Made by a program: the position numbers and the translations under genes. Below are positions 1 to 62,585 of a stretch of 64,000 bases of DNA, piece after piece. The notes beneath the pieces are model-generated. The model had not been told where the DNA came from. It made no database searches and saw nothing but the letters and a program-made list of their open reading frames with translations. Each line of letters begins with the position of its first letter. Within the stretch, counting starts at the first letter, position 1. Location of the stretch: contig CAYVFE010000001.1 of NCBI GenBank assembly GCA_964450885.1, positions 310,572 through 374,571 of the forward strand. The letters are read 5' to 3'. Origin of the DNA: an uncultured Gammaproteobacteria bacterium. GTDB lineage: Bacteria > Patescibacteriota > Microgenomatia > Levybacterales > GWA1-39-11.

Positions 1-570
1 AGAGAATCCAGATATCTTCTCAGTATCACCCCCGGTGAATTAGAGCGATTTATTGAGCGCGGAGAAAAAGCTCTGAGCGGATTCTATGATGAAAAGGCAG
101 CGCATTGGACAAGAGACGTAGAGTCGGAGCTTGATATAAAAGGAGTCAGGATAAATGACGATTTATTTCTAAATGGAAAGATAGATATGGTAGAACCTCT
201 AGAAAAATCGGGAAAAGTTGCGGTTATAGATTTCAAGACTGGCAGTGTTAAGTCAAGAAATGTGATAGAGGGAAAAACAAAGGATAGTCTCGGAAATTAT
301 AAAAGACAGCTCGTCTTTTATAAGATACTTCTTGATAGATACAGAAATGGATTCTTCAAGATGGTAAATGGTGTCATAGAATTTGTCGAACCAAATGAAA
401 GTGGCACATATAAGAGAGAGGTATTTGATATATCAGATGACGAGACGAAAGAGCTACTGGAAAAGACAATTATAGTAAGCCGCGAGATTATAAACCTTTC
501 TTTTTGGAAAAGTAAATGTGATGATAAAAAGTGTAAATACTGCCATCTCCGTGACTATATAGCCTCATAA
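1..570 (+). CDS. C-terminal fragment of a PD-(D/E)XK (RecB-family) nuclease domain protein; the 5' end lies outside the window
   Basis: The frame is open from nt 1. Motifs 'GKIDMVE...VIDFKTG' and 'RQLVFYKILL' (QxxxY) match the RecB nuclease. A C-terminal Cys cluster 'CDDKKCKYCH' is AddB/Cas4-like. Confidence 0.6.
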   Translation, partial: RESRYLLSITPGELERFIERGEKALSGFYDEKAAHWTRDVESELDIKGVRINDDLFLNGKIDMVEPLEKSGKVAVIDFKTGSVKSRNVIEGKTKDSLGNYKRQLVFYKILLDRYRNGFFKMVNGVIEFVEPNESGTYKREVFDISDDETKELLEKTIIVSREIINLSFWKSKCDDKKCKYCHLRDYIAS

Positions 571-585
571 TGGTATAATGGTCTT

Positions 586-1320
586 ATGGCAGAGAACGAT
601 ACTCCTTTTAAAATTCAATTCCTAAAAAAAGAAAAGCTGACAAAAGACACTTATTCTTTTTATTTCAAAAGAGATAAAAAATCGCGCGATTTTATAGCAG
701 GCCAGTATTTCGAGATAAAGCTTAGGATAAAAAATCCAGATGAGCGGGGAGACTCACGCGTCTTTACATGCTGCTCCAGCCCTACAGAAAAAGACCACTA
801 TATGATAACAACACGCATCATCGAAAGTACATTTAAGATAGAGCTTGGCAAATTGAAAAAAGGTGACATCGTGCAGTTTAACGGTCCGTGGGACGATTTG
901 AATTTTGATGAATCAGAGGAGTTGCCACAAGTGTTTTTCGCGGGTGGGATAGGGATTACGCCATTTCACTCGATAGTAAAATACGCGATCGATAAAAAGC
1001 TCGAGCTTCCTATGACGCTTTTTGTCTCGTGGTCTTCCATGGAAGAAATGATATTTGATGACTTTTTTAAAGATGCCGAAAAAAAACTAAAAGACTTCCG
1101 TTATATCCCTACGATAACTCACGCGCAGGACATAAAAGAATGGAAAGGCGAGACAGGACGCATCAGTGAGCGTTTGGTAAAAAAGTACATAAAAAAAGTC
1201 AGGAATAATAAGTTCCGTATCGCAGGGCCTCCGGGACTTGTGAAAGCTATGAAGGAGCTTTGCGTGCAGATGAATGTTCCGAAAGAAAACATAATAGCCG
1301 AAGAATTCGAAGGATATTAG
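586..1320 (+). CDS. Ferredoxin-NADP reductase-like FAD/NAD(P)-binding oxidoreductase
   Basis: FNR-like flavin-binding segment 'RVFTCCSSP'. NAD-binding motif 'GGIGITPF'. Size 244 aa. Confidence 0.6.
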   Translation: MAENDTPFKIQFLKKEKLTKDTYSFYFKRDKKSRDFIAGQYFEIKLRIKNPDERGDSRVFTCCSSPTEKDHYMITTRIIESTFKIELGKLKKGDIVQFNGPWDDLNFDESEELPQVFFAGGIGITPFHSIVKYAIDKKLELPMTLFVSWSSMEEMIFDDFFKDAEKKLKDFRYIPTITHAQDIKEWKGETGRISERLVKKYIKKVRNNKFRIAGPPGLVKAMKELCVQMNVPKENIIAEEFEGY

Positions 1321-2073: not shown

Positions 2074-2141
2074 TTTATCCGACTTCACAAGGTTCGCTTT
2101 CGAGGGGTAGGACTCTCGAGAAATGTCAAAAAATATCAGAG

Positions 2142-2150
2142 TGTGATAAT
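2142..2150 (+). promoter_or_regulatory. Extended -10 element TGtGATAAT, 11 nt upstream of ATG 2162
   Basis: Sequence match to TGnTAtaAT. Confidence 0.3.
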
Positions 2151-2161
2151 ATACGAGTCAC

Positions 2162-2437
2162 ATGAGTGCAGAGCGTATAGTTCCATGCCAGTTCAATCCA
2201 CTAATAGACTGTGAGGCGCAGTGTACGCTATATAGTAAAGGGTCTCAATTCGTGAGTGAATTTAGTGAAGGATTTGAAATTCCAGAAAGCGCAGTAGCTG
2301 AAAAATTAAGAGCTCAATTTTCGATGCTTGATCCCAGGGAGCAAGACAAACTGATCAAGGGTAAAATAACTATCCTGGGGGAGAAGCAAATTGATCAGGC
2401 AAGCTGCATGAAATTCGATCCGCCACAGAGTAAGTAA
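2162..2437 (+). CDS. Hypothetical protein (91 aa)
   Basis: ORF preceded by an extended -10 element. No recognisable domain. Confidence 0.3.
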   Translation: MSAERIVPCQFNPLIDCEAQCTLYSKGSQFVSEFSEGFEIPESAVAEKLRAQFSMLDPREQDKLIKGKITILGEKQIDQASCMKFDPPQSK

Positions 2438-2452
2438 AGTCTCGTCACCATT

Positions 2453-2461
2453 CAGCCTCAA
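2453..2461 (+). repeat. Copy of the 9-mer cAGCCTCAA (followed by aaaa)
   Basis: Exact 8/9 match to the motif recurring at 6082, 12875, 12895 and 13881. Confidence 0.5.
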
Positions 2462-2523
2462 AAAAGTATTAATATACATATGTTCTCCTATTTTCAAGAG
2501 CATGAGAATGAGATTTGATAATG

Positions 2524-2559
2524 GAAAACATCATCGCTGAAGAATTCGAGGGACACTAG
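2524..2559 (+). repeat. Decayed copy of the 3' end of the FNR-like gene (mini-ORF M-ENIIAEEFEGH*)
   Basis: 30/36 nt identical to 1285-1320 (ENIIAEEFEGY*). The stop codon is retained. Confidence 0.6.
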
Positions 2560-2946
2560 TTATCTAATATACAGATACACTTTATTCTTCAATGCTTTAC
2601 ATTTCAAGCTAGGGAAAGGATAATAGTTGAGTAGTATTCTAGTCCCCATCTTCAATTCTTTGCTTAACTTTTCCTCCAGCTCCTGCATTACGTCTGGCAT
2701 GGGGTATATCACTGTTATGTCGTAGGGTGAAAGATCTACATCCCAGAAATTCTTATTATGTATCTTGATTTTTTTATCGAGTCTTTCTATCTTGATAAGC
2801 TCTCTGGATTCCTTAATTCGTTCTTCATCTAATTCGAATCCATCTACTAGAGCCCCGGATTTGGCAAAAGCTATTGCTATGCGTCCGTCGCCGCTTCCCA
2901 GATCTGCTACTTTTTCACCTTCTTTTACTTTTGAGAGTTCTATCAT
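2560..2946 (-). CDS. Small class I SAM-dependent methyltransferase-like protein (128 aa, possibly truncated)
   Basis: Motif I 'VADLGSGDGRIA' followed by an acidic post-I 'GFELDE'. Unusually short for a methyltransferase. Confidence 0.45.
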   Translation of the reverse strand: MIELSKVKEGEKVADLGSGDGRIAIAFAKSGALVDGFELDEERIKESRELIKIERLDKKIKIHNKNFWDVDLSPYDITVIYPMPDVMQELEEKLSKELKMGTRILLNYYPFPSLKCKALKNKVYLYIR

Positions 2947-3005
2947 AGTTTTTACTCTGTACCGCGAAGTTTTAAAATAAGGAATTAGTGGAATTTTATT
3001 AATAT

Positions 3006-4118
3006 TTACTTTAGCCTTTCAGAAATTATATTTACAAGCTTATCTATTCCATCACCGTTTTTTGCGCTGATGAAAGTTGGACTGAATCTGCTATATGCAG
3101 ATCTGATTTTTTCAATATCGAAATCTTTTGCATTCTCAATCTTGTTAAAGATATATAGTACTCTCCGCCTTTTTATTTTTAGATCCGCAAAAATTTGTTC
3201 TACTGTATATATTTTTTCGTCCTTGCGTGGGTCAGAGCTGTCTACAACGTGTAGGACTAAATCGCTATGAATTGACTCCAGAAGAGTGGATTTAAATGTG
3301 TTTATGAGTTGTGGAGGTAGGTCTTTTATAAATCCTATCGTGTCAGAGATATAGACTTCTTTTTGCAGAGGTTTTAGGTAAAACTTATTTACCGTACTGT
3401 CTAGGGTTGCGAAAAGCGCGTCTTCAACGAGATCGCTCTGCCCGGATAGCTTATTAAAAAGTGTGGTCTTTCCTGCATTTGTGTATCCGACCAGAGATAG
3501 GGTTTTCAATCCACCCTTTTTTCTATGATCTATCTGCTCCTGTTTTCTCTTAGACAGCGCATTGAGTTCATCTTGAATCCTCCCCTTTTCATTTCTCCAG
3601 TGCCGAAGCATCAGCTCAGTATTACTTTCCCCTGATCCCTTTGCGCCGATTCCTGCTGCTTGGTTAGACATCTCCATTCCCATACCATAAATCCTAGGTC
3701 CCATTTGTCTGAGCTTTGCAAATTTTATCTGGAGTTTTGCTTCAGCGGTTTTTGCATGCTTGCTAAATATTTCCAGAATCAGACTAACTCTATCCCATAC
3801 GATGATTTGTGGATTCGCTTTTTCGAATGCGAGTTTTAGTTCATGTACCTGTCCAGGTTTTATCGAGATATTTATGACTACTATATCTATCCTTTCTTTT
3901 TCTATTAGATCTATGACTTCTTCCACTTTACCGTGACCGATAAAAGTTCTTCTGTCACCACGGGTGCTGTTTTGAACTACTGCAGAAAATACTTTTCCTC
4001 CGTATGTATTAACTAAAGATTCTACTTCCTCAAATTCGGAAACAATGTCCTCGTTATCCTCTCCAGGATAGGACAATCCGATAAGCATAACTCTGGGAAC
4101 AACGGGTGGAATATACAT
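3006..4118 (-). CDS. hflX: GTPase HflX
   Basis: HflX N-domain 'FIGHGKVEEV'. G-domain 'LVGYTNAGKTTLFNKLSG', 'DTIGFI' and 'NKIE'. Confidence 0.85.
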   Translation of the reverse strand: MYIPPVVPRVMLIGLSYPGEDNEDIVSEFEEVESLVNTYGGKVFSAVVQNSTRGDRRTFIGHGKVEEVIDLIEKERIDIVVINISIKPGQVHELKLAFEKANPQIIVWDRVSLILEIFSKHAKTAEAKLQIKFAKLRQMGPRIYGMGMEMSNQAAGIGAKGSGESNTELMLRHWRNEKGRIQDELNALSKRKQEQIDHRKKGGLKTLSLVGYTNAGKTTLFNKLSGQSDLVEDALFATLDSTVNKFYLKPLQKEVYISDTIGFIKDLPPQLINTFKSTLLESIHSDLVLHVVDSSDPRKDEKIYTVEQIFADLKIKRRRVLYIFNKIENAKDFDIEKIRSAYSRFSPTFISAKNGDGIDKLVNIISERLK

Positions 4119-4164
4119 TCAGCTACATTATAACTTATGCACTCATAAGAACGCTCAGAAGCAA

Positions 4165-4197
4165 AATATAAACTCCGAAGAGTTCGAAGGTTACTAG
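4165..4197 (+). repeat. Second decayed copy of the FNR-like gene 3' end (..NINSEEFEGY*)
   Basis: 20/23 nt identical to 1298-1320. The differences are synonymous (gaa>gag, gga>ggt, tat>tac). Confidence 0.55.
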
Positions 4198-4224
4198 ATT
4201 GTTTTGTGGGAGTATAATGTAATT

Positions 4225-4626
4225 ATGAGAAAAGGTTATCATTCAAATATAGAGATTCTAACTGACGGAAACGAAAGTTTTAGAAAAGTCCTTTATACTG
4301 CAAAAAATTGCCAGCTAGTTCTGATGAGTCTCAATCCGTTAGAGGAGATAGGCATGGAAGTACATGATGATGGTGATCAATTCTTTAGGTTTGAAAGCGG
4401 CGAGGGTAAAGTCACTATTGATGATGCGGAATATAAAGTGAAAGATGGTGATGCAGTCATAGTGCCTGCAGGAAGCAGGCACAATGTAGTAAATATTTCA
4501 GAGACCGAGAAGTTAAAGCTTTATACAATTTATACTCCACCTCACCATAAGGACGGGATAGAAAGAGTTACGAAAGAGGAAGCCGAGAAAGACGGCCCGG
4601 AATTTGACGGAACGACTACTGAATAA
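4225..4626 (+). CDS. Cupin domain protein
   Basis: Cupin motifs 'MEVHDDGDQFF' and 'VIVPAGSRHNV'. The likely ATG is at 4225, 6 nt after TATAAT at 4213-4218 (the ORF track starts at TTG 4204). Confidence 0.6.
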   Translation: MRKGYHSNIEILTDGNESFRKVLYTAKNCQLVLMSLNPLEEIGMEVHDDGDQFFRFESGEGKVTIDDAEYKVKDGDAVIVPAGSRHNVVNISETEKLKLYTIYTPPHHKDGIERVTKEEAEKDGPEFDGTTTE

Positions 4627-4692
4627 CCCCAGCCTCCCTCCGGCACTAAAGTTTTGGCGGGCAGGCAAAATATCGCATTGAGGGTCACTAAG

Positions 4693-4701
4693 TGGTAGAA
4701 T
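4693..4701 (+). promoter_or_regulatory. Extended -10 element TGgTAGAAT, 6 nt upstream of ATG 4708
   Basis: Sequence match. Implies a leaderless transcript. Confidence 0.3.
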
Positions 4702-4707
4702 TTTTGC

Positions 4708-6075
4708 ATGACAAGCGTGGAATCATCAGAAGGTCAGTTAGCTTCTCCCGACCCGCTTAAAGAAGTCAAAAAAGAAGCAGCGAAAATCATAGGACTAGGT
4801 AGTGAAAGAAATCTTCAGGTATATATAACGATTTCCGGAGCTTTGCATGAAGGAATTCCTTCTATAGATCTTCTGGGAGAAATTGAGAGATCAGACATAT
4901 TGTCTTTGGAGCTTCCTTCAAATGTAGTTAGAGCCTTTGTGCAAGGGACCGAGACAAGAATTGATGATAATCCGTTTTGGGGAACTTCTATCGAAAATTC
5001 AAATTCAGCCGTGGGGGTAAATAATAATCGTGGTGCAGTAAATGGAATTAGGATTCTTGACGATAGGGTGCGTGAGGGGCAGACGATTCCACAAAATGTT
5101 CCCGATGTTGCAATAGGGGCAGCTAATATAAAGTATGGAAAAGGAAAAGACCTGGAGAGAGTTGAGATTTCCGAAAGTACGCTAATAGAAAATCTGAGAA
5201 AACAGCAAGAAGGTTTTGATGATATTTTTCCTGCAAAAACGATGGTGATGCAAGATGGCAAAGAATATTACATCCATATTAATAGACCAGTTGAAAATGA
5301 AGCATCGGCGCTTTTAATTACAGGGGGTTATATGCTCCCGACACAGTACATGATGGAGCGTGGTGAAGATATTTTTGGGGAAGAGACAGGTGGTATTACC
5401 GGAATTGAACTTTGTCAATTTGCGTTAAGTCATTTAATAAGAATGCAGGTCGATAAAGTTCAGGTAGAAGGTATGTTAAAAGACCTAAGAAAGAAGATGA
5501 GTAAGTATGAAACTGGTTCAAATATCAGACTAGTACACCTAGGCGGAGCAGCACACAATCCTAATATTCTGGGTATTTTAGATGAAGTTTTTGGTGAGCA
5601 AGAGGAAGTTAGGATAAATGAATTACATGATGAAAGAATGCCTGAGCCGGCTCTAGATAAGCTCACTTTTTTCGGTAGATTTATTCCAGCTCGGGACGCA
5701 CTAGAATGCGCGTCAGTAGTTGAGGATCAGGTTGTTGTAGATGTAGGCAAAACTGATGCTTTACTGCAAAAATTGGCATCAGAGCATGCAGATAAGCTTT
5801 TAGACTTTGCTAAAAGGGAAAAACTAGCACGGGACTTTGAGGATACTCTGCCTGAGTGTGATAACAGTGGTCAGGTAGAATATTTTGCTGTGCGAAGCTT
5901 GTTGTCTTTAGTTACTCCGGATGAAGTTGAAGGATCAGCATTACCTGATACTTCATATCCTTCTATGCTAGCGGAATACATAATTGAAAAGTATCCTGAT
6001 AAAAAAGACAGGGTAGAAAAAGTAACTGCGCAATATAATGATCGCAGATTTAATTTCCCACCCAGAAGACAATAG
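4708..6075 (+). CDS. Hypothetical protein (455 aa), no recognisable domain
   Basis: Long ORF with coding-like composition and its own promoter-like element. Sits at the edge of the defence cassette. Confidence 0.5.
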   Translation: MTSVESSEGQLASPDPLKEVKKEAAKIIGLGSERNLQVYITISGALHEGIPSIDLLGEIERSDILSLELPSNVVRAFVQGTETRIDDNPFWGTSIENSNSAVGVNNNRGAVNGIRILDDRVREGQTIPQNVPDVAIGAANIKYGKGKDLERVEISESTLIENLRKQQEGFDDIFPAKTMVMQDGKEYYIHINRPVENEASALLITGGYMLPTQYMMERGEDIFGEETGGITGIELCQFALSHLIRMQVDKVQVEGMLKDLRKKMSKYETGSNIRLVHLGGAAHNPNILGILDEVFGEQEEVRINELHDERMPEPALDKLTFFGRFIPARDALECASVVEDQVVVDVGKTDALLQKLASEHADKLLDFAKREKLARDFEDTLPECDNSGQVEYFAVRSLLSLVTPDEVEGSALPDTSYPSMLAEYIIEKYPDKKDRVEKVTAQYNDRRFNFPPRRQ

Positions 6076-6081
6076 CACCCG

Positions 6082-6090
6082 CAGCCTCAA
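6082..6090 (+). repeat. 9-mer cAGCCTCAA (followed by aaa), left flank of the defence cassette
   Basis: Lies 28 nt upstream of the -10 element of the PLD-SNF2 gene. An inverted repeat CTCAAA-N9-TTTGAG follows. Confidence 0.5.
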
Positions 6091-6114
6091 AACCCTCGCA
6101 TTTGAGTTCAGGAA

Positions 6115-9100
6115 GTGTTAAAATCTGGTATGAGTAACTTTATTACGAATAATGGAAATTCAGATCTTAAGCATCGCTTGGTAGAATTGATTAAGAAAAG
6201 TGACGAATTAAAGTTTCTTGTGGGCTTTTTCTATTTTTCAGGAATCAGGGAGCTATATGAAGGACTGAAGTCAAACCCAGATACTGTTATCAAGGTTCTG
6301 GTCGGCTTGAATATAGACAAAGCAGTGTTTGGATTAGTTGAGACTGAGAGTGAAGAAGAATCATCTGATGAAGAAAAAATATATAAGTTTATTGAATCTA
6401 TTAAAAAATCTCTTAATACTGAAGAATTTGATACGGAGGAATTTTACGAACAAGTACGTTTCTTCATCGAGCTTATCCAAAAAGATAAGCTAATCATTCG
6501 TAAAACTTACAACCCAAACCATTCAAAGCTTTATTTATTCAAATTAGAAGAGAATCAGGCTGTAAAAGAATTATTTATAACGGGCAGTAGCAACTTAACG
6601 AGGGCAGGACTTACCACTCAAAATGAGTTCAATGTGGAGATTAGTAGTTATGGCTTTGAAGATGCCGAGAAGTATTTTAATGACCTCTGGGATGAGGCCG
6701 TAAAGATTACAGAATTTCAAGAAATCAAAACAAAATTAGTTCAAATCATTGAAAAAGAAACTTTAATAAAAGATGTTACACCTTTTGAGGCTTTTTGTCT
6801 GGTTTTGAAAACCTATCTGGATACTTTTGAAGAAAAAGAAATAGGTGAGACATTAATAAAAACACTTGAAGAAAATGGGTATACACCATATCAGTACCAA
6901 TTAGATGCCGTTAAGCAGGCGCTGGCTACTATTGAAAAGAACAATGGTGTAATCGTGGCAGACGTTGTAGGACTTGGAAAAACAGTTATTGCTTGTGCAA
7001 TATCAAAACAAATTAACAAACGTGGCATTGTCATTTGCCCCCCAGGACTCATGGGTGATAGAGATGGAGGTTCGGGATGGGGAAAATATCTTGAAGAATT
7101 TGGACTTGATAATTGGAAGGTGTGGTCGCGCGGGGACCTAAAGATGGCTTTGAATTTTGTAAATAATGCAAAAGATATAGAAGTAGTTATTGTAGATGAA
7201 GCTCATTGGTTTAGAAATCAGGATACTGAAAACTACGAATTGCTTAAGAATATCTGTCGAGAAAAAAAGGTCATACTGCTTACAGCAACCCCATTCAATA
7301 ATCGTCCAGGAGATATTCTTGCACTACTAAAGCTCTTTATAACACCTAAGAAATCTACAATAACTCTTGAAAGCAACTTGGTCGATCAATTTAAAGCTTT
7401 TAAAGGAATGTTTGATCGACTCGGCTATATAAGAAAATATAAAAATTCTCTAAATGAATCGAAGAGATTAAAAGCTCATGCCTATTATAGATCTATATTC
7501 GAGGAAGACATCGTTGACCTGGAAAAAGTTAAACAAAAAGCTGGTTATCTTGCCAAACAAATAAGAAACGTTATAGAACCGGTGACGATAAGACGGAATA
7601 GATTAGATCTACAAAATCATCCTGTTTACAATAGTGAAGCAGATAATCTTTCAAAGGTTGATGATCCGAAGGAGTGGTTTTTTAAATTAACAAAAGAACA
7701 GTCGGAATTTTATTCAGAAATTCTCGAAGAATATTTTGGCGATCCAAATGAAGGAGGTAGATTCAAGGGTGCAATTTATCGACCTTTTGAGTACGAAAAA
7801 GGACTCAAATCGTTAAGTACAAATGAGGCTGAAGAAAAATTAAACCAAGATGATAATAGAGCCTTCCAACAACAGAGAAACTTATTCGACTTTATGAGGC
7901 GATTATTAGTTAAACGTTTTGAGAGTTCGTTTGGTTCATTTGAACAAAGCATAAAGAATTTTAAACAGATTACTCTAAGATGCCAGGAATTTGTCAACAC
8001 AACAGGTGAATACATACTTGATCGTTCACTGCTTGAAAAAATTTACGAGCTTGAGGCTGAAGAGATAGAAAAATATTTGTTAGAGTATGAAGAAAAAATA
8101 ACGAATGGTGAATATCCTAAAACTCACAAACGTTATAGAATCAAAGACTTCAAGAACAAGGAAGAGTTTATCCTAGACATTAAAAGCGACATTGACCTTT
8201 TTACAGAAATATTGGACAAATTAGCAAAATTAGAATTGGTGAAATATGACCCAAAAACAGAATGCCTACTGGAGAATTTACATGAGGAGTTCTCCAAAAA
8301 ACCTAATGGTGATGAACCCAAAAGAAAAATTATTATCTTTAGCGAATATGTAGATACCGTTCGATACCTTGAGGAGACACTAAAACAACACTATGGTAAT
8401 CGAATGCTTGTAGTGGCTGGAGATCTACCTAACTCAAAAATTGCCAAACTAAATAAAAACTTTGATGCCTCACATTCAGATCAGGATGATGAATTTGATC
8501 TTCTTTTGACTTCAGACAAAATTTCTGAGGGTTTTAACCTCAATCGTGCTGGAATGGTGGTAAATTATGATATTCCTTGGAATCCAGTGAGAGTAATACA
8601 GAGACTGGGACGAATCAATCGTATTAGTAAGAAAGTGTTTGAAAATCTGAATATTGTAAACTTCTTCCCTACAGAAAAAGGAGCAGAATTAGTAAAATCT
8701 AGAGAAATAGCGGCAAATAAAATGTTTCTTATACATTCAGCTCTTGGGGAAGACTCAAAGATTTTTGATTCAGACGAAGAACCAACCCCCGCAAGACTTT
8801 TTAGTAAAGTTCAACAAAATCCCGACGAACTTGAAGAGGAAAGTTTCTATACAAAAGCATATAAGGAGTATATGAAAATTACCAAAGATAATCCTGAGTT
8901 ATTCGAGAATCTCAAGAATTACCCCCCCCGCATAAAAGTTGCTAAAAACGGAAAGGAAAATGAGCTTTTGGTCTTTTTCACTAAAGGAAGATTGTATGTG
9001 AGCGGAACACAAACAGATCAGGAAAATATAAATCCATATTATCTGGTATTCGAAGATGTATTTGAGAAGATTATTTGTACGCCGAATGAAGAATCTCTGG

Positions 9101-9471
9101 ATTGGAATACAGATAAGTTTTGGTTATCTTATCAAGCTATTAAGGACTTTAAAGATTTCCGTCAAGGAATCGTCAACGAACAGAGTTTGGAACAAAAAGC
9201 ACAAAATAAGCTCGAAACACTTTTAAGGAGCCCCTTAGAAGAATTAATGCCATATAAAGATTTCTTAAGAATCCTGATGGAAGATATATTACATTTTGGT
9301 ACTTTGGCAGATTTTACACTTCGTAGAATTATGAATTTCACTGAGGACAGCACCAAAGATATTCAGGACTTGCGAAGCACTCTTGGAACGGATTATCTGA
9401 CAAAAGAAAAAGATAGGATCAAAGAGCAAAAGAAAGAAATCATTATTGCAATAGAGAATAAGAAAATATGA
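6115..9471 (+). CDS. Fusion protein: N-terminal phospholipase-D-family (HKD) nuclease domain plus SNF2-family helicase/ATPase
   Basis: PLD motif 'HSKLYLFK...ITGSSNLT'. SNF2 motifs I 'VVGLGKTVIA', II 'VIVDEAHWFRN', III 'LLTATPFNN', V 'LLTSDKISEGFNL' and VI 'QRLGRINRISKK'. The GTG at 6115 is probably not the start; the real start is likely ATG 6130. Confidence 0.85.
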   Translation: MLKSGMSNFITNNGNSDLKHRLVELIKKSDELKFLVGFFYFSGIRELYEGLKSNPDTVIKVLVGLNIDKAVFGLVETESEEESSDEEKIYKFIESIKKSLNTEEFDTEEFYEQVRFFIELIQKDKLIIRKTYNPNHSKLYLFKLEENQAVKELFITGSSNLTRAGLTTQNEFNVEISSYGFEDAEKYFNDLWDEAVKITEFQEIKTKLVQIIEKETLIKDVTPFEAFCLVLKTYLDTFEEKEIGETLIKTLEENGYTPYQYQLDAVKQALATIEKNNGVIVADVVGLGKTVIACAISKQINKRGIVICPPGLMGDRDGGSGWGKYLEEFGLDNWKVWSRGDLKMALNFVNNAKDIEVVIVDEAHWFRNQDTENYELLKNICREKKVILLTATPFNNRPGDILALLKLFITPKKSTITLESNLVDQFKAFKGMFDRLGYIRKYKNSLNESKRLKAHAYYRSIFEEDIVDLEKVKQKAGYLAKQIRNVIEPVTIRRNRLDLQNHPVYNSEADNLSKVDDPKEWFFKLTKEQSEFYSEILEEYFGDPNEGGRFKGAIYRPFEYEKGLKSLSTNEAEEKLNQDDNRAFQQQRNLFDFMRRLLVKRFESSFGSFEQSIKNFKQITLRCQEFVNTTGEYILDRSLLEKIYELEAEEIEKYLLEYEEKITNGEYPKTHKRYRIKDFKNKEEFILDIKSDIDLFTEILDKLAKLELVKYDPKTECLLENLHEEFSKKPNGDEPKRKIIIFSEYVDTVRYLEETLKQHYGNRMLVVAGDLPNSKIAKLNKNFDASHSDQDDEFDLLLTSDKISEGFNLNRAGMVVNYDIPWNPVRVIQRLGRINRISKKVFENLNIVNFFPTEKGAELVKSREIAANKMFLIHSALGEDSKIFDSDEEPTPARLFSKVQQNPDELEEESFYTKAYKEYMKITKDNPELFENLKNYPPRIKVAKNGKENELLVFFTKGRLYVSGTQTDQENINPYYLVFEDVFEKIICTPNEESLDWNTDKFWLSYQAIKDFKDFRQGIVNEQSLEQKAQNKLETLLRSPLEELMPYKDFLRILMEDILHFGTLADFTLRRIMNFTEDSTKDIQDLRSTLGTDYLTKEKDRIKEQKKEIIIAIENKKI
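6116..6124 (+). promoter_or_regulatory. Extended -10 element TGtTAAAAT, 5 nt upstream of ATG 6130
   Basis: Sequence match. Implies a leaderless mRNA for the defence operon. Confidence 0.35.
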
Positions 9472-12400
9472 GTGATGCAAGAAGTCTACTAGAATCAATC
9501 ATCGAGGAATATTCAGTAGAAAAGTTCACGAGATTTTTTCGTGAAAAGAGTCAAAAGTTTACACCCCGACAAGAAAGCTATTCCCGTTATGATGATGATA
9601 ACTTCACTAAAGGATTTAAAATAGGTGAAGTAAATTTTTCCGAGATTGACAACCTTACAATCTGCGCTTTTGAAGTTACCAAAGCATTATCCGAAAAATC
9701 TGGCAAAAAATCCCAATATGAACTTGGAAAAAAAATTCTAAAAGAAGCTCAAGCTGGTGCTGGTATTTTTATTTTTTACGATCAGAACGGTAACTTTCGT
9801 TTTTCCCTTATTTATCCAGAATCGATTGGCACAAGAAGACAATGGAACAACTTCCGGAGGTTTACATATTTTATCAGTCATGAATTTACAAATAAGACTT
9901 TTCTTAAGCAAATTGGCGATAAAGAATTTACAAAACTCGATGATATTAAAGCAGCCTTTTCTGTTACTGCAGTTACAGACATTTTTTATAAAGAATTTTT
10001 CGATCTATATAAAAAAATTGTTGAAGCAACCAAGAATTTGAACAAAATTGAAGATGATGATCAAGCACGAGACTTTGTTTTACTCTTTGCCATTAGAACT
10101 ATTTTTCTTGGGTTCATCCAAAAAAAGAAATGGTTAGGAGACGACGAAAAGTTTATACAAACTTTTTATCAGGAATACAAAGATAAATTTGCTAATAAAA
10201 ATGAGTTTTACAGTCGGTGGTTGTCACCATTGTTTTTTGAAGCTCTCAATTCTCCACAGGGGAGAAAAGTAGCATACGGAGATAACGATTTTTCAGAAGA
10301 AACTGCAAAAAAACTTCAAATGGCGCCATATTTAAATGGTGGACTCTTCAGAGAAAAATCTGGATACGATACGAATGGCTGGAAAATTCCAGATCAAGTT
10401 ATTGAAAACTTTTATGATTTTTTGTTCTCCCATAGCTTTACAATAGAAGAAAACTCTCTTGAGGATGAGGATCTTCAACTCAATCCGGAATTTTTGGGAA
10501 TTATTTTTGAGCGTTTGGTTAATAAAGCCGACGGAGCAGTTTACACACCCCGACCAGAAGTTGACCTAATGTGTCGTTTAAGTCTAGTTAAATGGCTTCG
10601 AAAGAATCTAGAATCATCGATAAGGGTTGAAAATCTATATGAACTTTTCTTCAAAGAAAGCGAGAATGAAGATGAGCAAAAAGATGGTAGCTTTTCTCCA
10701 AAAGAAGCGCAGGAGATTTTGAATATACTCGAGAATGTAGCCATATGTGATCCAGCAGTAGGTTCGGGTGCATTCTTAGTGGGCATGATGCAAGTTTTGG
10801 ATGATGTGGAGATAGCTTTAAGAAAGAAAGCGAATATAGAAGTTCACAATGATTTTGAACGAAAAAAGCAAATTATAAAAAAATCATTGTACGGAGTAGA
10901 AGTTAAGGAGTGGGCTGTGTGGATCTGCCAATTGCGACTTTGGCTATCTCTCTTTGTTGATGCACCAGAGGACCTAAAAGACTCAATGGACCCAATTTTA
11001 CCGAATCTTGACTTTAAGGTGAGACAAGGGGATTCCTTGGTCCAGTTAATAGGTTCAAGAAATGTTCCAGTATCAACAGATAATTCTTTAGTAAGTGGGA
11101 GTTTATTAAAAGAAATACGTGAACTTATACAGCTTAAGATTGCTCATTATGAAACAGGACAACCTTCTAAAGAAGATATCGAGCACCGTGAGTATCTTTT
11201 CTATCGAAACTGGATGCAGCAGGAAATTACTAAAGAACAGAACAAATTAGTTCAAATTAATCAAAACGAAAAGAACAATCAGAATCAACAATCACTGTTT
11301 AATGATAAGGTTGATTCAAAACCGATTAACTTGAATTTATTTCAAAAAGAAAGAGATGAAATAGTAGTAAAGCTTGAGCTACTCAGATCTCAACTTAGGG
11401 ATTTACATCGGACAAATAAGCCTTTCCTTTGGCAACTGGAATTTTCTGAAATATTTAGCACCAAAGGGGGGTTTGATATCGTCATCGGGAATCCACCTTA
11501 TGTTAGGCAAGAAGACATTGCAGACCCAACAGGCAAGGTAAAAGACAAAAAGGAATACAAGGGATATCTACAAGAAATGGTCAAGATGGATTTTCCCGAT
11601 TATTTTCCTCCTAAGGCAAAGATAAACGCCCAGTCTGATCTTTACACCTATTTTTACATACGAGCACTTCGTCTTCTTAATGCTCAAGGGGTTCATACTT
11701 TTATCTGTTCTAACTCTTGGTTAGATGTTGGCTACGGTGTGTGGTTACAAGAATTTCTTTTAAATCGCTGTCCAGTAGAAATTATTATAGATAACCACGC
11801 AAAAAGAAGTTTTGAGGCAGCTGATGTAAACACAATCATTTCAATCATTCATGCCCCTCAAAAAAGTGTCGAAGCTGATCATCTAGTTAAATTTGTAGCT
11901 TTTAAGAAATCTTTCGAATCCGCGATATTTACCGAAAACCTTATTTCCATTGAGCAAGAAAAAGAAGTAGAAACTAATGACATTTATCGTGTATATCCAA
12001 TATCAATTACGAATCTCAAAGAAGCAGGCACCGAGTTTGATGGTGATTCTCAAGCAAGGCTGAAAGTGGGTAAATATGTAGGTGATAAATGGGGTGGCAA
12101 ATATTTAGTAGCTCCAGATTTTATATTTAATATTTTAGTCAATCCTTTAGATAGGATCATTAAATTTAAGTCAGTCTTTAACCATTCTCAAAGAAATAAT
12201 CTTTCCGTATTTCAAGATAAAGCTAAAGTGGAAAAAAAAGACGGCACAATTCCTTACCTTTCTTCTATTAAAGACGTCAACACTATAAAAATCGACAAAA
12301 ATAATTTGAAGTATTGGATAAAAGGAAAAAGTAGTGAAATCAGTGATATGTTTGTTCCAGATGTTATATCTAACAGGTTTGTGTCGGATAGGATTTTCTT

Positions 12401-12869
12401 TTTAGAAGGAGGTAATTTTGCAATTTCAGATACCTTTTTTCTGCTAAAAATTACGAGTTTATATAGTAAAGAACAAGTATTATCGTTGTTAAATAGCACA
12501 TTCTCGTTATTGATAACCGAGATATTAGGACGAAAAAATTTGGGAGGTGGGTTATTAACAATTTACGGATATGAACTGGAAAGATTTTATATTGTTAATC
12601 CAACGCTGATTAAAAATAATAGACGTATACTGATTTACTATAAATCATTATCAGAAAGAGTAATCGGATCTGTTTTTGTAGAGTGTGGGATTGATCCAAG
12701 ATCAGAGACACCAATAGATGAACAGGATCCCAAGCCATTATCTGATAGAGCTGAACTGGACAATATTGTTTTTGACGCATTGAAACTTTCTGAAGATGAA
12801 CGTAAGGATGTCTACCGTGCAGTTTGCAGACTAGTTTGGAACAGGATCAGTAAAGCAAATAGCGTATAG
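9468..12869 (+). CDS. Large Eco57I-family (gamma-class) N6-adenine DNA methyltransferase with long N- and C-terminal extensions (PglX/DrmMI/Type IIG-like)
   Basis: Motif I 'ICDPAVGSGAFLVG' precedes motif IV 'VIGNPPYVRQ'. The start overlaps the upstream stop (ATGA), indicating translational coupling. Confidence 0.85.
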   Translation: MSDARSLLESIIEEYSVEKFTRFFREKSQKFTPRQESYSRYDDDNFTKGFKIGEVNFSEIDNLTICAFEVTKALSEKSGKKSQYELGKKILKEAQAGAGIFIFYDQNGNFRFSLIYPESIGTRRQWNNFRRFTYFISHEFTNKTFLKQIGDKEFTKLDDIKAAFSVTAVTDIFYKEFFDLYKKIVEATKNLNKIEDDDQARDFVLLFAIRTIFLGFIQKKKWLGDDEKFIQTFYQEYKDKFANKNEFYSRWLSPLFFEALNSPQGRKVAYGDNDFSEETAKKLQMAPYLNGGLFREKSGYDTNGWKIPDQVIENFYDFLFSHSFTIEENSLEDEDLQLNPEFLGIIFERLVNKADGAVYTPRPEVDLMCRLSLVKWLRKNLESSIRVENLYELFFKESENEDEQKDGSFSPKEAQEILNILENVAICDPAVGSGAFLVGMMQVLDDVEIALRKKANIEVHNDFERKKQIIKKSLYGVEVKEWAVWICQLRLWLSLFVDAPEDLKDSMDPILPNLDFKVRQGDSLVQLIGSRNVPVSTDNSLVSGSLLKEIRELIQLKIAHYETGQPSKEDIEHREYLFYRNWMQQEITKEQNKLVQINQNEKNNQNQQSLFNDKVDSKPINLNLFQKERDEIVVKLELLRSQLRDLHRTNKPFLWQLEFSEIFSTKGGFDIVIGNPPYVRQEDIADPTGKVKDKKEYKGYLQEMVKMDFPDYFPPKAKINAQSDLYTYFYIRALRLLNAQGVHTFICSNSWLDVGYGVWLQEFLLNRCPVEIIIDNHAKRSFEAADVNTIISIIHAPQKSVEADHLVKFVAFKKSFESAIFTENLISIEQEKEVETNDIYRVYPISITNLKEAGTEFDGDSQARLKVGKYVGDKWGGKYLVAPDFIFNILVNPLDRIIKFKSVFNHSQRNNLSVFQDKAKVEKKDGTIPYLSSIKDVNTIKIDKNNLKYWIKGKSSEISDMFVPDVISNRFVSDRIFFLEGGNFAISDTFFLLKITSLYSKEQVLSLLNSTFSLLITEILGRKNLGGGLLTIYGYELERFYIVNPTLIKNNRRILIYYKSLSERVIGSVFVECGIDPRSETPIDEQDPKPLSDRAELDNIVFDALKLSEDERKDVYRAVCRLVWNRISKANSV

Positions 12870-12874
12870 TTGTC

Positions 12875-12883
12875 TAGCCTCAA
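12875..12883 (+). repeat. 9-mer TAGCCTCAA (copy A)
   Basis: Exact repeat of 12895-12903 and 13881-13889. Context ttgtcTAGCCTCAA. Confidence 0.5.
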
Positions 12884-12894
12884 TTGCTTTTGCT

Positions 12895-12903
12895 TAGCCT
12901 CAA
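12895..12903 (+). repeat. 9-mer TAGCCTCAA (copy B), 3 nt upstream of TATAAT 12907-12912
   Basis: Exact repeat. Context ttgctTAGCCTCAA. Confidence 0.5.
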
Positions 12904-12920
12904 GAGTATAATCCTACATC

Positions 12921-13841
12921 ATGAATAGTAATTCATTCAATATTGTTTATAAAAACAGTACTTCAAAAAACAAAGGTTACAGTCTTGAAATCTTAGGAAG
13001 CTCATTAGTTGGAGTTAATAAAATTATAAAGGAATTTGTTGACATTGCAAATTTTAATAACGAATTAGATATTAAAGTTAATAATGTTAAGAACGGGTCT
13101 ATAATTATTGAATTACTGTTCTATATAGATTTTCATCTGCTTTTTACAAACATTCAGGATCTATATAATTTTCTTTTAGTAGCAGATCCAAAACAGTATA
13201 AGGAGGTTGCTGAGTTTTTCTCTAATATAGATGGTGCACATAAATCAATTAACAATTATTACTCTCAATTTCCACTAACTGGTGAGATTAGTATGATGCT
13301 GATAGGGATATATATTGGCCGTATGATGCATATGAGTGGTAAGCAGAAAGAACAACTAACATTGAAAGATGAAAACGGTAATAAATTTCCCATAAAATAC
13401 GCTCAGAGGCTTCAAAATTTTGTGAAAAGAGGAGGATTTAAAAAGGCGCTTAGTCCAATTGTTGAAGGCGATGCAGAAGAAATAATTATGGAGCAGGCTG
13501 AAGTGCGGTTTAAGATTAGCGAAGAGAATATTGAGAACTTTTTACCTGAAGATGATCAAATCTTACCAGAGTATGAGGATGGGATGAATATTACTTTTAC
13601 GGGAAAAATTGTCGCCTTGCAAAGTACGAAAGGTGAGAGTGTTAAATTTAAAGCTAATGAAATTAATTCAGAGCTCTCTCTTTTAACTGCATATCCCGAA
13701 GAGGGTAAGGGCAGCGAGGAGTATGTCAATTTTTACAAAAAGGATATCGTATTAAGATCACAGATATATAGGAAATCTATGTATGTAAGACCAGCAATAC
13801 TAATAAAATCTGTTGAATTAATGCAAGAACAACTTATTTAA
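12921..13841 (+). CDS. Hypothetical Asn/Ile-rich protein (306 aa), third gene of the cassette
   Basis: ORF 52 nt downstream of the methyltransferase. No recognisable motif. Confidence 0.5.
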   Translation: MNSNSFNIVYKNSTSKNKGYSLEILGSSLVGVNKIIKEFVDIANFNNELDIKVNNVKNGSIIIELLFYIDFHLLFTNIQDLYNFLLVADPKQYKEVAEFFSNIDGAHKSINNYYSQFPLTGEISMMLIGIYIGRMMHMSGKQKEQLTLKDENGNKFPIKYAQRLQNFVKRGGFKKALSPIVEGDAEEIIMEQAEVRFKISEENIENFLPEDDQILPEYEDGMNITFTGKIVALQSTKGESVKFKANEINSELSLLTAYPEEGKGSEEYVNFYKKDIVLRSQIYRKSMYVRPAILIKSVELMQEQLI

Positions 13842-13872
13842 AATAAAAAAATAACTACACATTCAATTAAAT

Positions 13873-13880
13873 GCTATAAT
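13873..13880 (+). promoter_or_regulatory. Extended -10 element TGcTATAAT
   Basis: Identical element to 39223-39230. ATG follows 9 nt later. Confidence 0.35.
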
Positions 13881-13889
13881 TAGCCTCAA
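13881..13889 (+). repeat. 9-mer TAGCCTCAA (copy C), right flank of the cassette, directly abutting ATG 13890
   Basis: Exact repeat. Confidence 0.5.
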
Positions 13890-14057
13890 ATGCCGCATCA
13901 ATTTATGTCAATTATTTGCTTGAAGTGTAATAAGGACTATTGTCCTGTTTGTAAGCCTGCCTGTCCAAAGTGTCATACATTTGATGATGCAGATGAAAAG
14001 ACTCTAAAAATCCGTTCTCAGATGAGGCGTCATGGGATGCTAGAAAAAATGAATTAA
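13890..14057 (+). CDS. Cys-rich micro-protein (55 aa), not in the ORF track
   Basis: Cys pattern CxxC-x4-C-x2-C-x3-C-x2-C in 'MPHQFMSIICLKCNKDYCPVCKPACPKCHTF...'. Own extended -10 element. Confidence 0.3.
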   Translation: MPHQFMSIICLKCNKDYCPVCKPACPKCHTFDDADEKTLKIRSQMRRHGMLEKMN

Positions 14058-14081
14058 GTCTCTTAAGAAAATGGGTAGGGG

Positions 14082-14675
14082 TTAGGCTTTTTTGGTGGGT
14101 TTTTTCTTCGACTTTGTTTTTTTACCTGTGGGTTTTTTCGGTTTTTCTACAACTTCCTCAGTTGTTTCCTCGCCCTCCATAGCTTTGGCGTCGGAGGGTT
14201 CTCCAGCTATTTCCTCTGACTCTTCTTTCTCCAATTCATCTTGAGCAAAATTTAGTATCTCTAAAATTTTATCCAGTTTTGCATTTATCTCACTTAGCTC
14301 TTTTCCAGAACCGTTCGTGATGCGTCTAGAGTCTCCGCCTTTTCCTTCAAAGCACCTACTACATAAAGTGTCTTTTCTCTCGTTAGGACGGAATGGGACT
14401 CTGCAGTTGGCACCACAATTTGCGCATACTGCCTCAAACATTTCTCGTTCTGATCTGTCGTTACTTCTGGAGAATCTGTCGTGTCCGCGTCCTGCATCTC
14501 GTCCTCGCGATTCTTCTGGAGAGTGCTTTTTAAAACAATTCCTGCAGTAAACAGGCCTTCCGTTAGATGGCTTAAATGGAAGTTCACAGAACTTACCACA
14601 GTCAGCACACGTTGCTTTAAAAGTTTCGCGATCTGATCCTCTATCAAAGCTTCTATCTCTATTAAAATTTCCCAT
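14082..14675 (-). CDS. Tandem zinc-ribbon protein with a lysine-rich C-terminal tail
   Basis: Two repeats of C-x2-C-x4-C-x2-PF(K/R)P-x(4-7)-C-x2-CF. Tail 'KKPTGKKTKSKKKPTKKA'. Confidence 0.55.
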   Translation of the reverse strand: MGNFNRDRSFDRGSDRETFKATCADCGKFCELPFKPSNGRPVYCRNCFKKHSPEESRGRDAGRGHDRFSRSNDRSEREMFEAVCANCGANCRVPFRPNERKDTLCSRCFEGKGGDSRRITNGSGKELSEINAKLDKILEILNFAQDELEKEESEEIAGEPSDAKAMEGEETTEEVVEKPKKPTGKKTKSKKKPTKKA

Positions 14676-14791
14676 TAGGTATATTATACATTACTCTAGG
14701 ATAAATAGTGTGAGTAAAATATAAATTCTTAAATCCTACTACTTCTTAAATTTGAATCCGCTTATCCAGTCTACTGTATAATGGATTACTG

Positions 14792-19636: not shown

Positions 19637-19720
19637 ATTCTGTATGCAAAAAAGTATAGCACATATGACTTTTTAGCCATGAATGTGGGATTATAGTAAA
19701 GATTGAGGCTATTAGCAAGG

Positions 19721-41742: not shown

Positions 41743-42144
41743 ATGAAAAAAAAGATAGAATTAGAAGATGAAGAGAAAGTTAAAAGCAAGAAAAAGATTG
41801 TCGAAGAATACGAATCACAGTGGAGCCTCAAAAGAATTCTTATTTTTTTGAGTATTCTTGGAGTAATTCTCTTTATTATTTATTATATTTTTACAGCAAG
41901 ATTTGGAGAGGTTTTAGGTGAAAAAGATATAGGCAGCACAAGTATCGGTCCGCAAATAGAACTTCCTTCAAAAGATAATATCGATGATATTTTAAAAGAT
42001 GCAGAAGAGAATGTGGCAAATATCGATGCGAATGACATCATAGGATCTCAGCCTCAAATTCAAGACGCCATAAAGCAACTGCAAAAGCTTACGAGCGAGG
42101 ATGGTATAAAAAAAGCATTTTGTTCGTCTGTCTGCTCGGAATAG
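41743..42144 (+). CDS. Hypothetical membrane-anchored protein (133 aa)
   Basis: N-terminal transmembrane segment. Confidence 0.35.
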   Translation: MKKKIELEDEEKVKSKKKIVEEYESQWSLKRILIFLSILGVILFIIYYIFTARFGEVLGEKDIGSTSIGPQIELPSKDNIDDILKDAEENVANIDANDIIGSQPQIQDAIKQLQKLTSEDGIKKAFCSSVCSE

Positions 42145-42190
42145 CTACTTACAGCAGAATAAATAATTCTGTTACAATAGCCTCATTACT

Positions 42191-43192
42191 ATGGAAGATA
42201 TATACTCAAGAGCAAAAAATCTTATCGAGCAGCTGGAAATAGAGAAGAAAAAAATCCGACTCAAAGAGATAGAAGCACAATCTACAGACCCAGATTTCTG
42301 GAAAAATAGTACAAAAGCAACGAATGCTATGAAAGAAATGGGGGAGCTTTCAAAGGAGATAGACACTTTAGAGCGGATTGAGAAGATGATATCAAATGGT
42401 GAAACTGAAGGACTTGAGAACCTGGTCTCCGAGCTTGAGATAAGCGTTTATCTCTCTGGAAAATTTGATAGGGGTTCTGCAATTCTTTCCGTCCACTCGG
42501 GTCAAGGAGGAGTCGATGCTATGGATTGGGCTCAGATACTATCCAGAATGTACACAAGGTATTTTGAGAAGAAAAAATACAGCGTTGAAATCATAGATGA
42601 GAGCAAAGGAGAGGAAGCGGGTATAAAAAGTATAACATTTATAGTAAATGGAGATCTTGCTTATGGAAAATTAAAGAATGAAAGCGGTACACATAGATTG
42701 GTTAGGCTTTCTCCTTTTAACTCGGATAAATTACGTCATACGTCCTTTGCTTTAGTTGAAGTGTTGCCATATGTTGATGACAACGTAGATATACAACTTA
42801 AAGAGGACGATCTAGAGTGGGATTTTTATAGAGCATCTTCTCATGGGGGCCAGAATGTTCAAAAAGTTTCTAGTGCGGTAAGGCTTACTCATAAACCCTC
42901 AGGTATAGTGGTTACCTGTCAAACAGAAAGGTACCAAAATCAAAACAGGGAATATGCTTTAAAAATCCTCAAGTCAAAACTTGCGGTGTTGGAAGAAGAA
43001 AAGAAAAAAGAGGAAGAAAGAAGACAAAAAGGGGATTATAAGCCAGCTTCTTGGGGCAACCAGATTAGAAACTATGTGCTTCACCCATATAAATTAGTTA
43101 AGGATACGAGGACAAAAGTGGAAAGCTCCGACCCTGATTCAGTACTGGACGGAAATATAGATTTATTTATTGATGCTGAGCTCAAATTGTAG
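42191..43192 (+). CDS. prfB: Peptide chain release factor 2
   Basis: 'SPF' motif in 'RLVRLSPFNSD'. 'GGQ' motif in 'SSHGGQNVQKVSSAVRLTH'. A single continuous ORF with no +1 frameshift. Confidence 0.85.
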   Translation: MEDIYSRAKNLIEQLEIEKKKIRLKEIEAQSTDPDFWKNSTKATNAMKEMGELSKEIDTLERIEKMISNGETEGLENLVSELEISVYLSGKFDRGSAILSVHSGQGGVDAMDWAQILSRMYTRYFEKKKYSVEIIDESKGEEAGIKSITFIVNGDLAYGKLKNESGTHRLVRLSPFNSDKLRHTSFALVEVLPYVDDNVDIQLKEDDLEWDFYRASSHGGQNVQKVSSAVRLTHKPSGIVVTCQTERYQNQNREYALKILKSKLAVLEEEKKKEEERRQKGDYKPASWGNQIRNYVLHPYKLVKDTRTKVESSDPDSVLDGNIDLFIDAELKL

Positions 43193-62012: not shown

Positions 62013-62585
62013 ATGTTAGCGGATTTAATAACTTCTAAAACAAGGGTAAAAATACTGTCACTATTCCTGCAGGATGTTGAGGAAATGTATCATGTTCGTG
62101 AAATAGTGAGGCGGGTCGACGAGGAAATAAACGCTGTCAGGCGGGAGCTTATTCTACTTGATAAAAAAGGCCTGTTGAATAAGGAAAAAAGAGGAAACAG
62201 AGTCTACTATTACTTCGATAAAAATTATCCCTTTATGAATGATCTTATACGCATCCATGCAAAGGAATCCGGTGTAGGAAGAGATATCATAAAGAATCGG
62301 GTAAAACTTGGTAATATTAAATTTGCCATGGCCTCAGGAAAATTCATTAGGGGATTGTCTACTAAGGAAGAGGTTGATATGCTTATTGTTGGCATTGTAG
62401 TTCTCCCAGAGTTACAGGTCATAGTTAAGAAGGAAGAAGAGAGAATAGGCCGAGAGATAAATTATACAGTTATGAGCGAAGAGGAGTTCAATTTTAGGAA
62501 AACAAGACGTGATCCATTTATCTATTCAATAATTAGCGGTTCCAGGATTATGCTAATTGGAGATGAGGAAAAGTTTTTATCATAA
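62013..62585 (+). CDS. Putative winged-helix transcriptional regulator
   Basis: N-terminal 'TRVKILSLFL...YHVREIVRRVDEEINAVRRELILLDKKGLL'. Confidence 0.45.
   Translation: MLADLITSKTRVKILSLFLQDVEEMYHVREIVRRVDEEINAVRRELILLDKKGLLNKEKRGNRVYYYFDKNYPFMNDLIRIHAKESGVGRDIIKNRVKLGNIKFAMASGKFIRGLSTKEEVDMLIVGIVVLPELQVIVKKEEERIGREINYTVMSEEEFNFRKTRRDPFIYSIISGSRIMLIGDEEKFLS

Follow-up and report, generated by a model that had tools for sequence, protein, structure and literature searches.

Stoperators are asymmetric DNA sites situated in promoters and in the short gaps between genes, and their orientation follows transcription (PMC9283540). The subject of this report is a 9-nt element, YAGCCTCAA, found in a 64-kb stretch of contig CAYVFE010000001.1 (hereafter the window), which comes from the genome of an uncultivated member of the Levyibacteriota, within the candidate phyla radiation (CPR). 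To our knowledge, cis-regulatory signals in CPR/Patescibacteria are poorly characterised. The initial annotation of the window had described five copies of the element as bracketing and punctuating a three-gene defence cassette, namely a PLD-SNF2 gene, an Eco57I-like methyltransferase gene and a third gene termed gene 3, and had offered three explanations: an operator for a dedicated regulator, a recombination or insertion scar, or a conserved leader element. The comparison with related loci given below separates the element from the cassette and largely removes the scar explanation. The element is a non-random, intergenic word placed in or against promoters and oriented with the downstream gene, and the operator is the option that fits best; the 9-mer may be an asymmetric operator or stoperator-like site bound by a sequence-specific factor, a reading that we put forward tentatively.

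The nonamer and its promoters

The 9-mer is (T/C)AGCCTCAA and its 8-mer core is AGCCTCAA. Across the whole window, the 9-mer is observed eight times against an expectation of 0.90 ± 0.94 (0 of 100 shuffles reach eight), and AGCCTCAA ten times against 1.9 expected under an order-3 Markov model, which gives it rank 2 among ~33,000 8-mers. The whole-window count alone fails multiple testing, because a second rank among ~33,000 8-mers is expected of random sequence too. Intergenic DNA makes up 3,360 nt, or ~5% of the window, and holds six of the ten AGCCTCAA copies and 7 of the 18 copies of AGCCTCA. In this intergenic fraction, six copies of AGCCTCAA stand against 0.10 expected (p = 1.3e-9), the most extreme value of all 8-mers, and none of 300 dinucleotide-preserving shuffles gave any 8-mer an equal intergenic p. 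AGCCTC(AA) is the top intergenic-enriched word at k = 6, 7 and 8, ranking above the -10 hexamer. The remaining four AGCCTCAA copies, in ~60 kb of coding DNA, are near expectation, so that the excess is confined to intergenic DNA; two of them are sense and two antisense. Copies with at most one mismatch number 24 in the window, against 16.7 expected. The claim that the motif is non-random and intergenic is thus borne out by the intergenic count and the shuffles.

A pattern search for the exact 9-mer recovers the five copies of the initial annotation, with coordinates, + strand and non-coding location all exact, and adds three that it had missed (19703 on the - strand, 8051 on the - strand and 42049 on the + strand); relaxing the last base yields two further TAGCCTCAT variants, at 560 and 42178. 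The local details recorded around the five copies hold as well: the inverted repeat CTCAAA-N9-TTTGAG (6086-6106), the 28 nt separating the 6082 copy from its -10 element, the 51-nt gap before gene 3 (12870-12920), the TTGyy prefixes of the tandem pair (TTGTC and TTGCT) and the order TATAAT, TAGCCTCAA, ATG at 13875-13892. The copies are as follows (ORF, open reading frame).

2453..2461, + strand: CAGCCTCAA copy, 16 nt past the stop of the strain-specific ORF 2162..2437, in decayed DNA; a -10-like TAATAT lies 8 nt downstream, and the copy is classed as within a 17-nt spacer
6082..6090, + strand: CAGCCTCAA copy, 7 nt past the stop of ORF 4708..6075 and upstream of the PLD-SNF2 gene; a weak -35-like CTCGCA is ~4 nt away, and the extended -10 TGTTAAAAT (6116-6124) follows after 28 nt
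12875..12883, + strand: TAGCCTCAA copy, flush against the gene-3 -35 hexamer TTGCTT (12884-12889)
12895..12903, + strand: TAGCCTCAA copy, within the 17-nt spacer of the gene-3 promoter (-10 TATAAT at 12907-12912, ATG at 12921)
13881..13889, + strand: TAGCCTCAA copy, occupying all 9 nt from the extended -10 TGCTATAAT (13872-13880) to the ATG of a Cys-rich ORF
19703..19711, - strand: TAGCCTCAA copy, between the -35 (TTGCTA, 19718-19713) and the -10 (TATAAT, 19695-19690) of topA promoter P1, which are 17 nt apart; intergenic, outside the variable island
42178..42186, + strand: TAGCCTCAT variant, abutting and overlapping the extended -10 TGTTACAAT (42170-42178) of the release-factor gene 42191..43192
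560..568, + strand: TAGCCTCAT variant, in the promoter spacer of gene 586..1320 (GTGACT-17-TATAAT)
8051..8059, - strand: exact copy inside the PLD-SNF2 coding region, antisense; taken as background
42049..42057, + strand: exact copy inside ORF 41743..42144, sense; taken as background

All seven intergenic copies of AGCCTCA, and likewise the variant at 560, point in the direction of the gene that follows, at a distance of 1-40 nt from its ATG, and every copy is preceded, at 5-40 nt, by the stop codon of an upstream gene read in the same direction. The downstream genes encode the PLD-SNF2 protein, gene 3, a 55-codon Cys-rich ORF, topA, a release factor and an oxidoreductase. Each intergenic copy sits in or against a sigma-70-type promoter, either abutting the -35 element, in the spacer (12895 for gene 3, 19703 for topA P1, 560 and 2453), or abutting the -10 element and filling the distance to the ATG (13881 and 42178); the 6082 copy is placed further upstream. 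The topA P1 promoter is the strongest promoter match in 19 kb. The 560 variant, which is kept in two congeneric loci (L004 and L058) and absent from a third (L003), is an ambiguous case because the same letters serve as the C-terminal codons and stop of the gene before it. The site is asymmetric, with no dyad in the 9-mer or its flanks and no inverted partner within ±150 nt; a 6-bp stem follows the 6082 copy only, and there is a single direct-repeat pair. Starts in this genome appear to be of the leaderless type: in 18 of 62 genes a TATAAT-like hexamer precedes the start codon by 5-12 nt, and a sequence resembling a Shine-Dalgarno site is found in only four.

A number of simpler identities for the 9-mer were considered and set aside. 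A sigma element of fixed spacing does not agree with the distance to the -10 element, which varies (3, 5, 7, 8 or 28 nt, or downstream of the -10); the motif is therefore, as judged by inspection, neither a substitute for the -35 nor an extracytoplasmic function (ECF), sigma-28 or sigma-54 element. A structured RNA or known RNA family was rejected, with no Rfam match, no tRNA, no consistent fold and no nearby complement; in local RNA folds the motif is mostly unpaired. An extended repeat, such as a miniature inverted-repeat transposable element or repetitive extragenic palindrome, was also rejected: repeat searches and MAFFT alignment reveal nothing in common beyond the 9 nt, and TRF finds no tandem array. 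Resemblances to the DnaA box, the IHF site and the LlaBIII site are partial and inconsistent.

The defence cassette, its hot spot and gene 3

The claim that the copies at 6082 and 13881 exactly delimit a three-gene cassette fails on comparison with related loci. Relatives of the PLD-SNF2 gene, whose true start, shared with its homologues, is ATG 6130 (MSN...), are found in 28 metagenomic loci (L013-L040) at 51-91% identity. The methyltransferase gene lies directly downstream in 19 of the 28 (tblastn), the other nine contigs being short or ending near the gene, and a gene-3 homologue was found in none of them; the conserved unit consists of two genes. In the window these two genes (6130-12869) overlap stop to start, and the pair recurs within unrelated flanks. 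In PADLOC, the pair matches the DrmD, HKD+Snf2 and type IIG models, and no complete named system is recognised. Similarity between loci begins at the ATG of the PLD-SNF2 gene, with mutually unrelated contexts upstream, and stops at the methyltransferase stop codon, after which different genes follow (five closest methyltransferase relatives). The motif is upstream of the PLD-SNF2 relative in 0 of the 26 loci that show the gene start, it has no copy after the methyltransferase gene in the related loci, and it does not occur downstream of homologues of ORF 4708..6075 (43-46% identity). The density of AGCCTCAA is 0.016 per kb in 306 kb of these loci versus 0.156 per kb in the window, a ten-fold difference. 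The initial annotation had named, as the situation in which its claim would fall, a cassette carried by relatives without the motif at its borders; this is the situation in the related metagenomic loci. On these alignments, the motif neither delimits nor belongs to the defence cassette, and it is unsuitable for delimiting the cassette or for inferring its insertion.

Loci from congeners place the two-gene pair in a recombination hot spot. Two of them (L003 and L057) lack window positions 2075-15708, and two others (L004 and L058) lack 4140-15708, which places the cassette within a variable hot spot of 11-14 kb. The hot spot is flanked by RmuC/HflX on one side and by NAD-binding/Zincin/UvrD genes on the other, and its cargo in congeners comprises NERD, GIY-YIG, a zf_Tbcl_2 protein, a cupin or almost nothing. 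Its edges (~2075 or ~4140, and 15708) do not coincide with any motif copy, and the empty junctions of all four loci contain no AGCCTCA-like word. The alignment with relatives lacking the cassette, suggested by the initial annotation as a check, thus puts the junctions away from the motif. A different repeat is found at the breaks. The 36-nt 3' end of gene 586..1320 (...EEFEGY*) is present in three direct copies (1285-1320, 2524-2559 and 4162-4197; 78-100% identity), two of which are non-coding and adjoin synteny breaks at ~2615 and ~4140. These copies look like remnants of rearrangement or insertion, because in L057 a cupin gene directly follows the NAD-binding gene 586..1320. Judged from this synteny, the true junction scars are the 36-nt gene-end repeats and not the 9-mer.

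Outside the hot spot, topA allows the motif to be followed at an orthologous promoter. The P1 -10 element (TATAATCCC) is kept in five congeners, P2 (TGCTATACT) in four, and a TTGCTA-like P1 -35 is visible in three. A lineage-wide promoter element was rejected as an explanation of the 9-mer: the congeneric loci (L003, L004 and L055-L058) carry it at background density, and the P1 spacer is not conserved.

The tandem topA promoters are themselves conserved in the genus (window 19634-19720 on the - strand; L003, L055, L057 and L058), with P1 as TTGCTA-17-TATAATCCC and P2 as TGCTATACT. Transcription from P1 of the window would start a leaderless 15-codon upstream ORF (MAKKSYVLYFFAYRI*) whose stop overlaps the topA ATG (ATGA). 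The closest TopA relatives have 81-85% identity.

Gene 3 (12921-13841) has no Pfam match. A word-index protein search returned the query alone, and an exhaustive HMMER search found 102 family representatives at up to 39% identity; gene 3 is not an orphan, and orphan calls made by indexed word search are unreliable for divergent families such as this one. The gene-3 product is predicted to contain a C-terminal oligonucleotide/oligosaccharide-binding (OB) fold, which is confidently modelled. Homologues in L062/L063 lie directly after hsdS and are followed by hsdR in an apparent type I restriction-modification (R-M) operon; that in L065, an independent context, has the same place immediately behind hsdS, again in what appears to be a type I R-M operon, and the next gene is cut by the contig end. 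In L061, a small helix-turn-helix (HTH) gene follows the gene-3 homologue. In L064, the homologue is stand-alone and has ~35-38% identity to gene 3; the locus further contains a gene homologous to that of the 128-aa methyltransferase of the window. A transposase identity for gene 3, with the 9-mer as a 9-bp duplication, was rejected: there is no Pfam match, no terminal inverted repeats are present and the family occurs in R-M operons.

The promoter of the L064 homologue reads AAGCCTCA, TTGCTT, 17 nt, TATAAT, t, TACCCTCAA, 8 nt and ATG. AGCCTCA stands against TTGCTT both at 12875 and in L064, and the L064 layout therefore repeats both the -35-abutting geometry of 12875 and the -10-abutting geometry of 13881 and 42178. 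The motif is absent from the other three gene-3 homologue contexts, namely the type I R-M operons and L061. Because the motif recurs at the promoter of the L064 homologue, the sequence comparison suggests that the pair 12875/12895 is an old feature of the gene-3 promoter and not a cassette seam. Behind gene 3, the 55-codon ORF (13890..14057) contains CxxC motifs (MPHQFMSIICLKCNKDYCPVCKPACPKCH...) and is served by an extended -10 of its own; no homologue of it was found in the loci retrieved, and its position is that of the small HTH gene behind the gene-3 homologue of L061.

A second promoter word, AACTACAC, is found in the window at 1814, 13853 and 24159 (- strand), directly after -10-like hexamers (TAAGAT, AAAAAT and TATAAT). 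In L064, the top intergenic 7-mer is AACTACA. The most over-represented 8-mer of the window is AATGGTGG, with ten copies against ~1.5-1.9 expected (8553, 10335, 18816, 30754, 39308, 46554, 57683, 61025 and 61660 on the + strand, and 18987 on the - strand); nine of the ten lie on the G-rich strand, and the congener loci exhibit no enrichment. AATGGTGG resembles Chi (GCTGGTGG). An AddA-like UvrD/PDDEXK gene is located at the left edge of the window.

Proposed function and its alternatives

Under the operator reading, a sequence-specific factor would bind the 9-mer, probably as a monomer because the site lacks dyad symmetry, and the bound factor would repress transcription by hindering RNA polymerase in binding or leaving the promoter. 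Alternatively, it would block read-through from the upstream gene and act as a roadblock between co-directional genes. The gene-3 promoter, which holds a pair of copies, and the small Cys-rich ORF that follows gene 3 would be the anchor points of the element, and further copies would act before the PLD-SNF2 gene, topA and the release-factor gene. Two parts of the initial proposal find no support. The winged HTH protein encoded at 62013-62585 had been put forward, as a regulator, for binding tests, and nothing ties the motif to it, its sole Pfam match being weak (E = 0.007). A dedicated regulator coordinating cassette expression had also been offered as a possibility, and copies occur at the topA and release-factor promoters outside the island. 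If validated, the site would offer an initial point of access to a small regulon of this uncultivated member of the Levyibacteriota, comprising accessory defence genes and topA. It would be at most a new cis-regulatory site, of note chiefly because the CPR genome that holds it comes from an uncultivated organism and has promoters of the leaderless type.

Several observations weigh against an operator. No binder emerged, the winged HTH ORF having the weak match given above and the 55-codon ORF no significant Pfam match. The downstream genes have no common functional theme, the site lacks a dyad, and a direct-repeat pair is found only once. Real regulons usually exhibit a halo of degenerate copies, and none is seen here: sites with up to two mismatches number 187 in the window, against 200 expected. 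The topA P1 spacer varies freely in the five congeners and contains TAGCCTCAA only in the window. Eight copies of AGCCTCA in ~100 kb of congeneric DNA represent background level, those checked lying within coding DNA or at its edge, and the density in the 306 kb of cassette relatives is likewise at background. The promoter match in L064 is modest, since 93 of 42,830 random windows reach it (p ~0.002) and four regions were examined. Finally, the 6-8 copies come from ~76 kb of the 588-kb contig, which is the extent of this genome's sequence inspected.

The main rival is that the 9-mer has no dedicated function and is a remnant of common descent, left as promoter pieces were copied by promoter capture or gene conversion while accessory genes assembled in the hot spot; we regard this as possible though rather unlikely. 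It would account for copies that are exact and lack a degenerate halo, for intergenic copies that are not seen in the sampled congeners, for the free variation of the topA spacer and for the finding that four of the six exact intergenic copies adjoin genes without a counterpart in the congener loci. The gene-3 and topA P1 promoters also align over ~41 nt (TTGCT..TAGCCTCAA..TATAATCC.ACAT.CATG), tied second of 1,891 upstream-region pairs; this alignment is not significant alone, because its score of 30 ties with that of an unrelated pair. However, a multiple alignment of all contexts shares nothing beyond the 9-mer, drift would not keep nine bases exact while erasing their flanks, and copying of this kind sits poorly with the reappearance of the motif before the L064 homologue, at ~35-38% identity to gene 3. 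The strict agreement of orientation with transcription, the place of every copy shortly after a co-directional stop codon, the largely unpaired state of the motif in RNA folds and the motif pair that accompanies gene 3 in L064 would all suit a different idea, that the word is read as a single strand, on non-template DNA or on read-through RNA, by a single-strand-binding protein, or by an RNase or a termination factor at work between cistrons. We consider this improbable: copies upstream of the -10 would be absent from the gene's own transcript because the genes appear leaderless, and no motif lies close to the gene-3 homologues of the type I R-M operons or of L061. A narrower form, slightly less probable again, would have the gene-3 OB-fold protein read AGCCTCAA strand-specifically, on the open-promoter non-template strand or on read-through RNA, a suggestion that draws on the modelled fold and on two of the four homologue contexts examined, in which the gene comes after hsdS and before the following gene of a type I R-M operon. 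Were it true, a defence-associated protein would be coupled to the expression of its own gene as well as to a few promoters of the host, that of topA included. OB folds are common and often not sequence-specific, which counts against reading by a single-strand binder of this type.

Methylation of the motif by the Eco57I-like methyltransferase, whose methylated promoter copies would tune expression in a form of epigenetic autoregulation of an R-M-like system, is very unlikely. Its attraction is that the family (Eco57I and type IIG matches) has short asymmetric targets and that copies lie on the promoters of cassette genes, but a site of 5-7 bp would be common in coding DNA too (AGCCTC, GCCTCA and CCTCAA occur 26-59 times in the window), relatives of the cassette lack such promoter copies, and L064 has the motif pair in a locus whose gene table contains no Eco57I-like methyltransferase. 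The least probable explanation, and one largely refuted, is that the copies are scars of recombination or insertion, whether att cores, target-site duplications or integron-like junctions. Five same-strand copies do punctuate successive gene blocks, and TAGCCTCAA on both sides of gene 3 (12895 and 13881) resembles a 9-bp target duplication. Against this, the breaks in the four congeneric loci are not at any copy and their empty sites lack the motif, as do the cassette relatives in the 28 metagenomic loci; no inverted repeats, attC-like structure, integrase or transposase were found (ORFs of 2162-15688 against Pfam), the duplicated remnants that do exist are the 36-nt repeats beginning at 1285, 2524 and 4162, and one copy lies in the promoter of topA, a core-genome gene.

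Comparison with known systems

Integron attC sites and other cassette-junction sites resemble the motif as same-strand repeats that punctuate successive accessory genes. They differ in structure, since the motif has neither the imperfect palindrome of 57-141 nt nor the paired core sites (R''/L''...L'/R') of attC, and no integrase was found among the ORFs of 2162-15688. Integron cassettes are promoterless, whereas gene 3, the micro-ORF behind it and the PLD-SNF2 gene each possess a -10 element, located 5-9 nt ahead of the ATG, and the motif copies are not at synteny breaks. An insertion scar, in turn, leaves a single copy at the empty site and repeats at the ends of the insert, and the 9-mer exhibits neither. 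DNA uptake sequences and Chi are likewise over-represented asymmetric 8-9-mers, but they are dense, mostly coding and oriented with replication, whereas the motif is at background level in the coding DNA of the window, falls short of the high density of uptake sequences there and is oriented with genes. Putative propagated or mobile promoters, which are homologous promoter fragments before unrelated genes, offer another likeness, since one promoter-embedded word stands before non-homologous genes of one genome; here the shared stretch is 9 nt, or ~41 nt with gaps for one pair, with no extended homology.

The operators of R-M controller proteins (C-proteins) are similar to the motif in being cis-sites on promoters of R-M type that could time expression. 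C-boxes are dyad-symmetric and adjoin a small HTH gene for the C-protein, whereas the motif has no dyad and the cassette no small HTH gene. In addition, the motif is found at housekeeping promoters, and the relatives of the cassette lack the site.

Among the closest described systems are the operators and stoperators of the repressors of cluster A mycobacteriophages (L5 gp71 type). The sites differ in length (9 nt here versus 13) and in setting (a cellular CPR chromosome versus a phage genome); there are only 6-8 copies in 64 kb, and no monomeric HTH repressor was found in the present system. The likeness is one of architecture: phage stoperators are short, asymmetric, present in several copies and oriented with transcription (PMC9283540), and the 9-mer is asymmetric, oriented with transcription and promoter-proximal in all its copies, which lie in short intergenic spacers.

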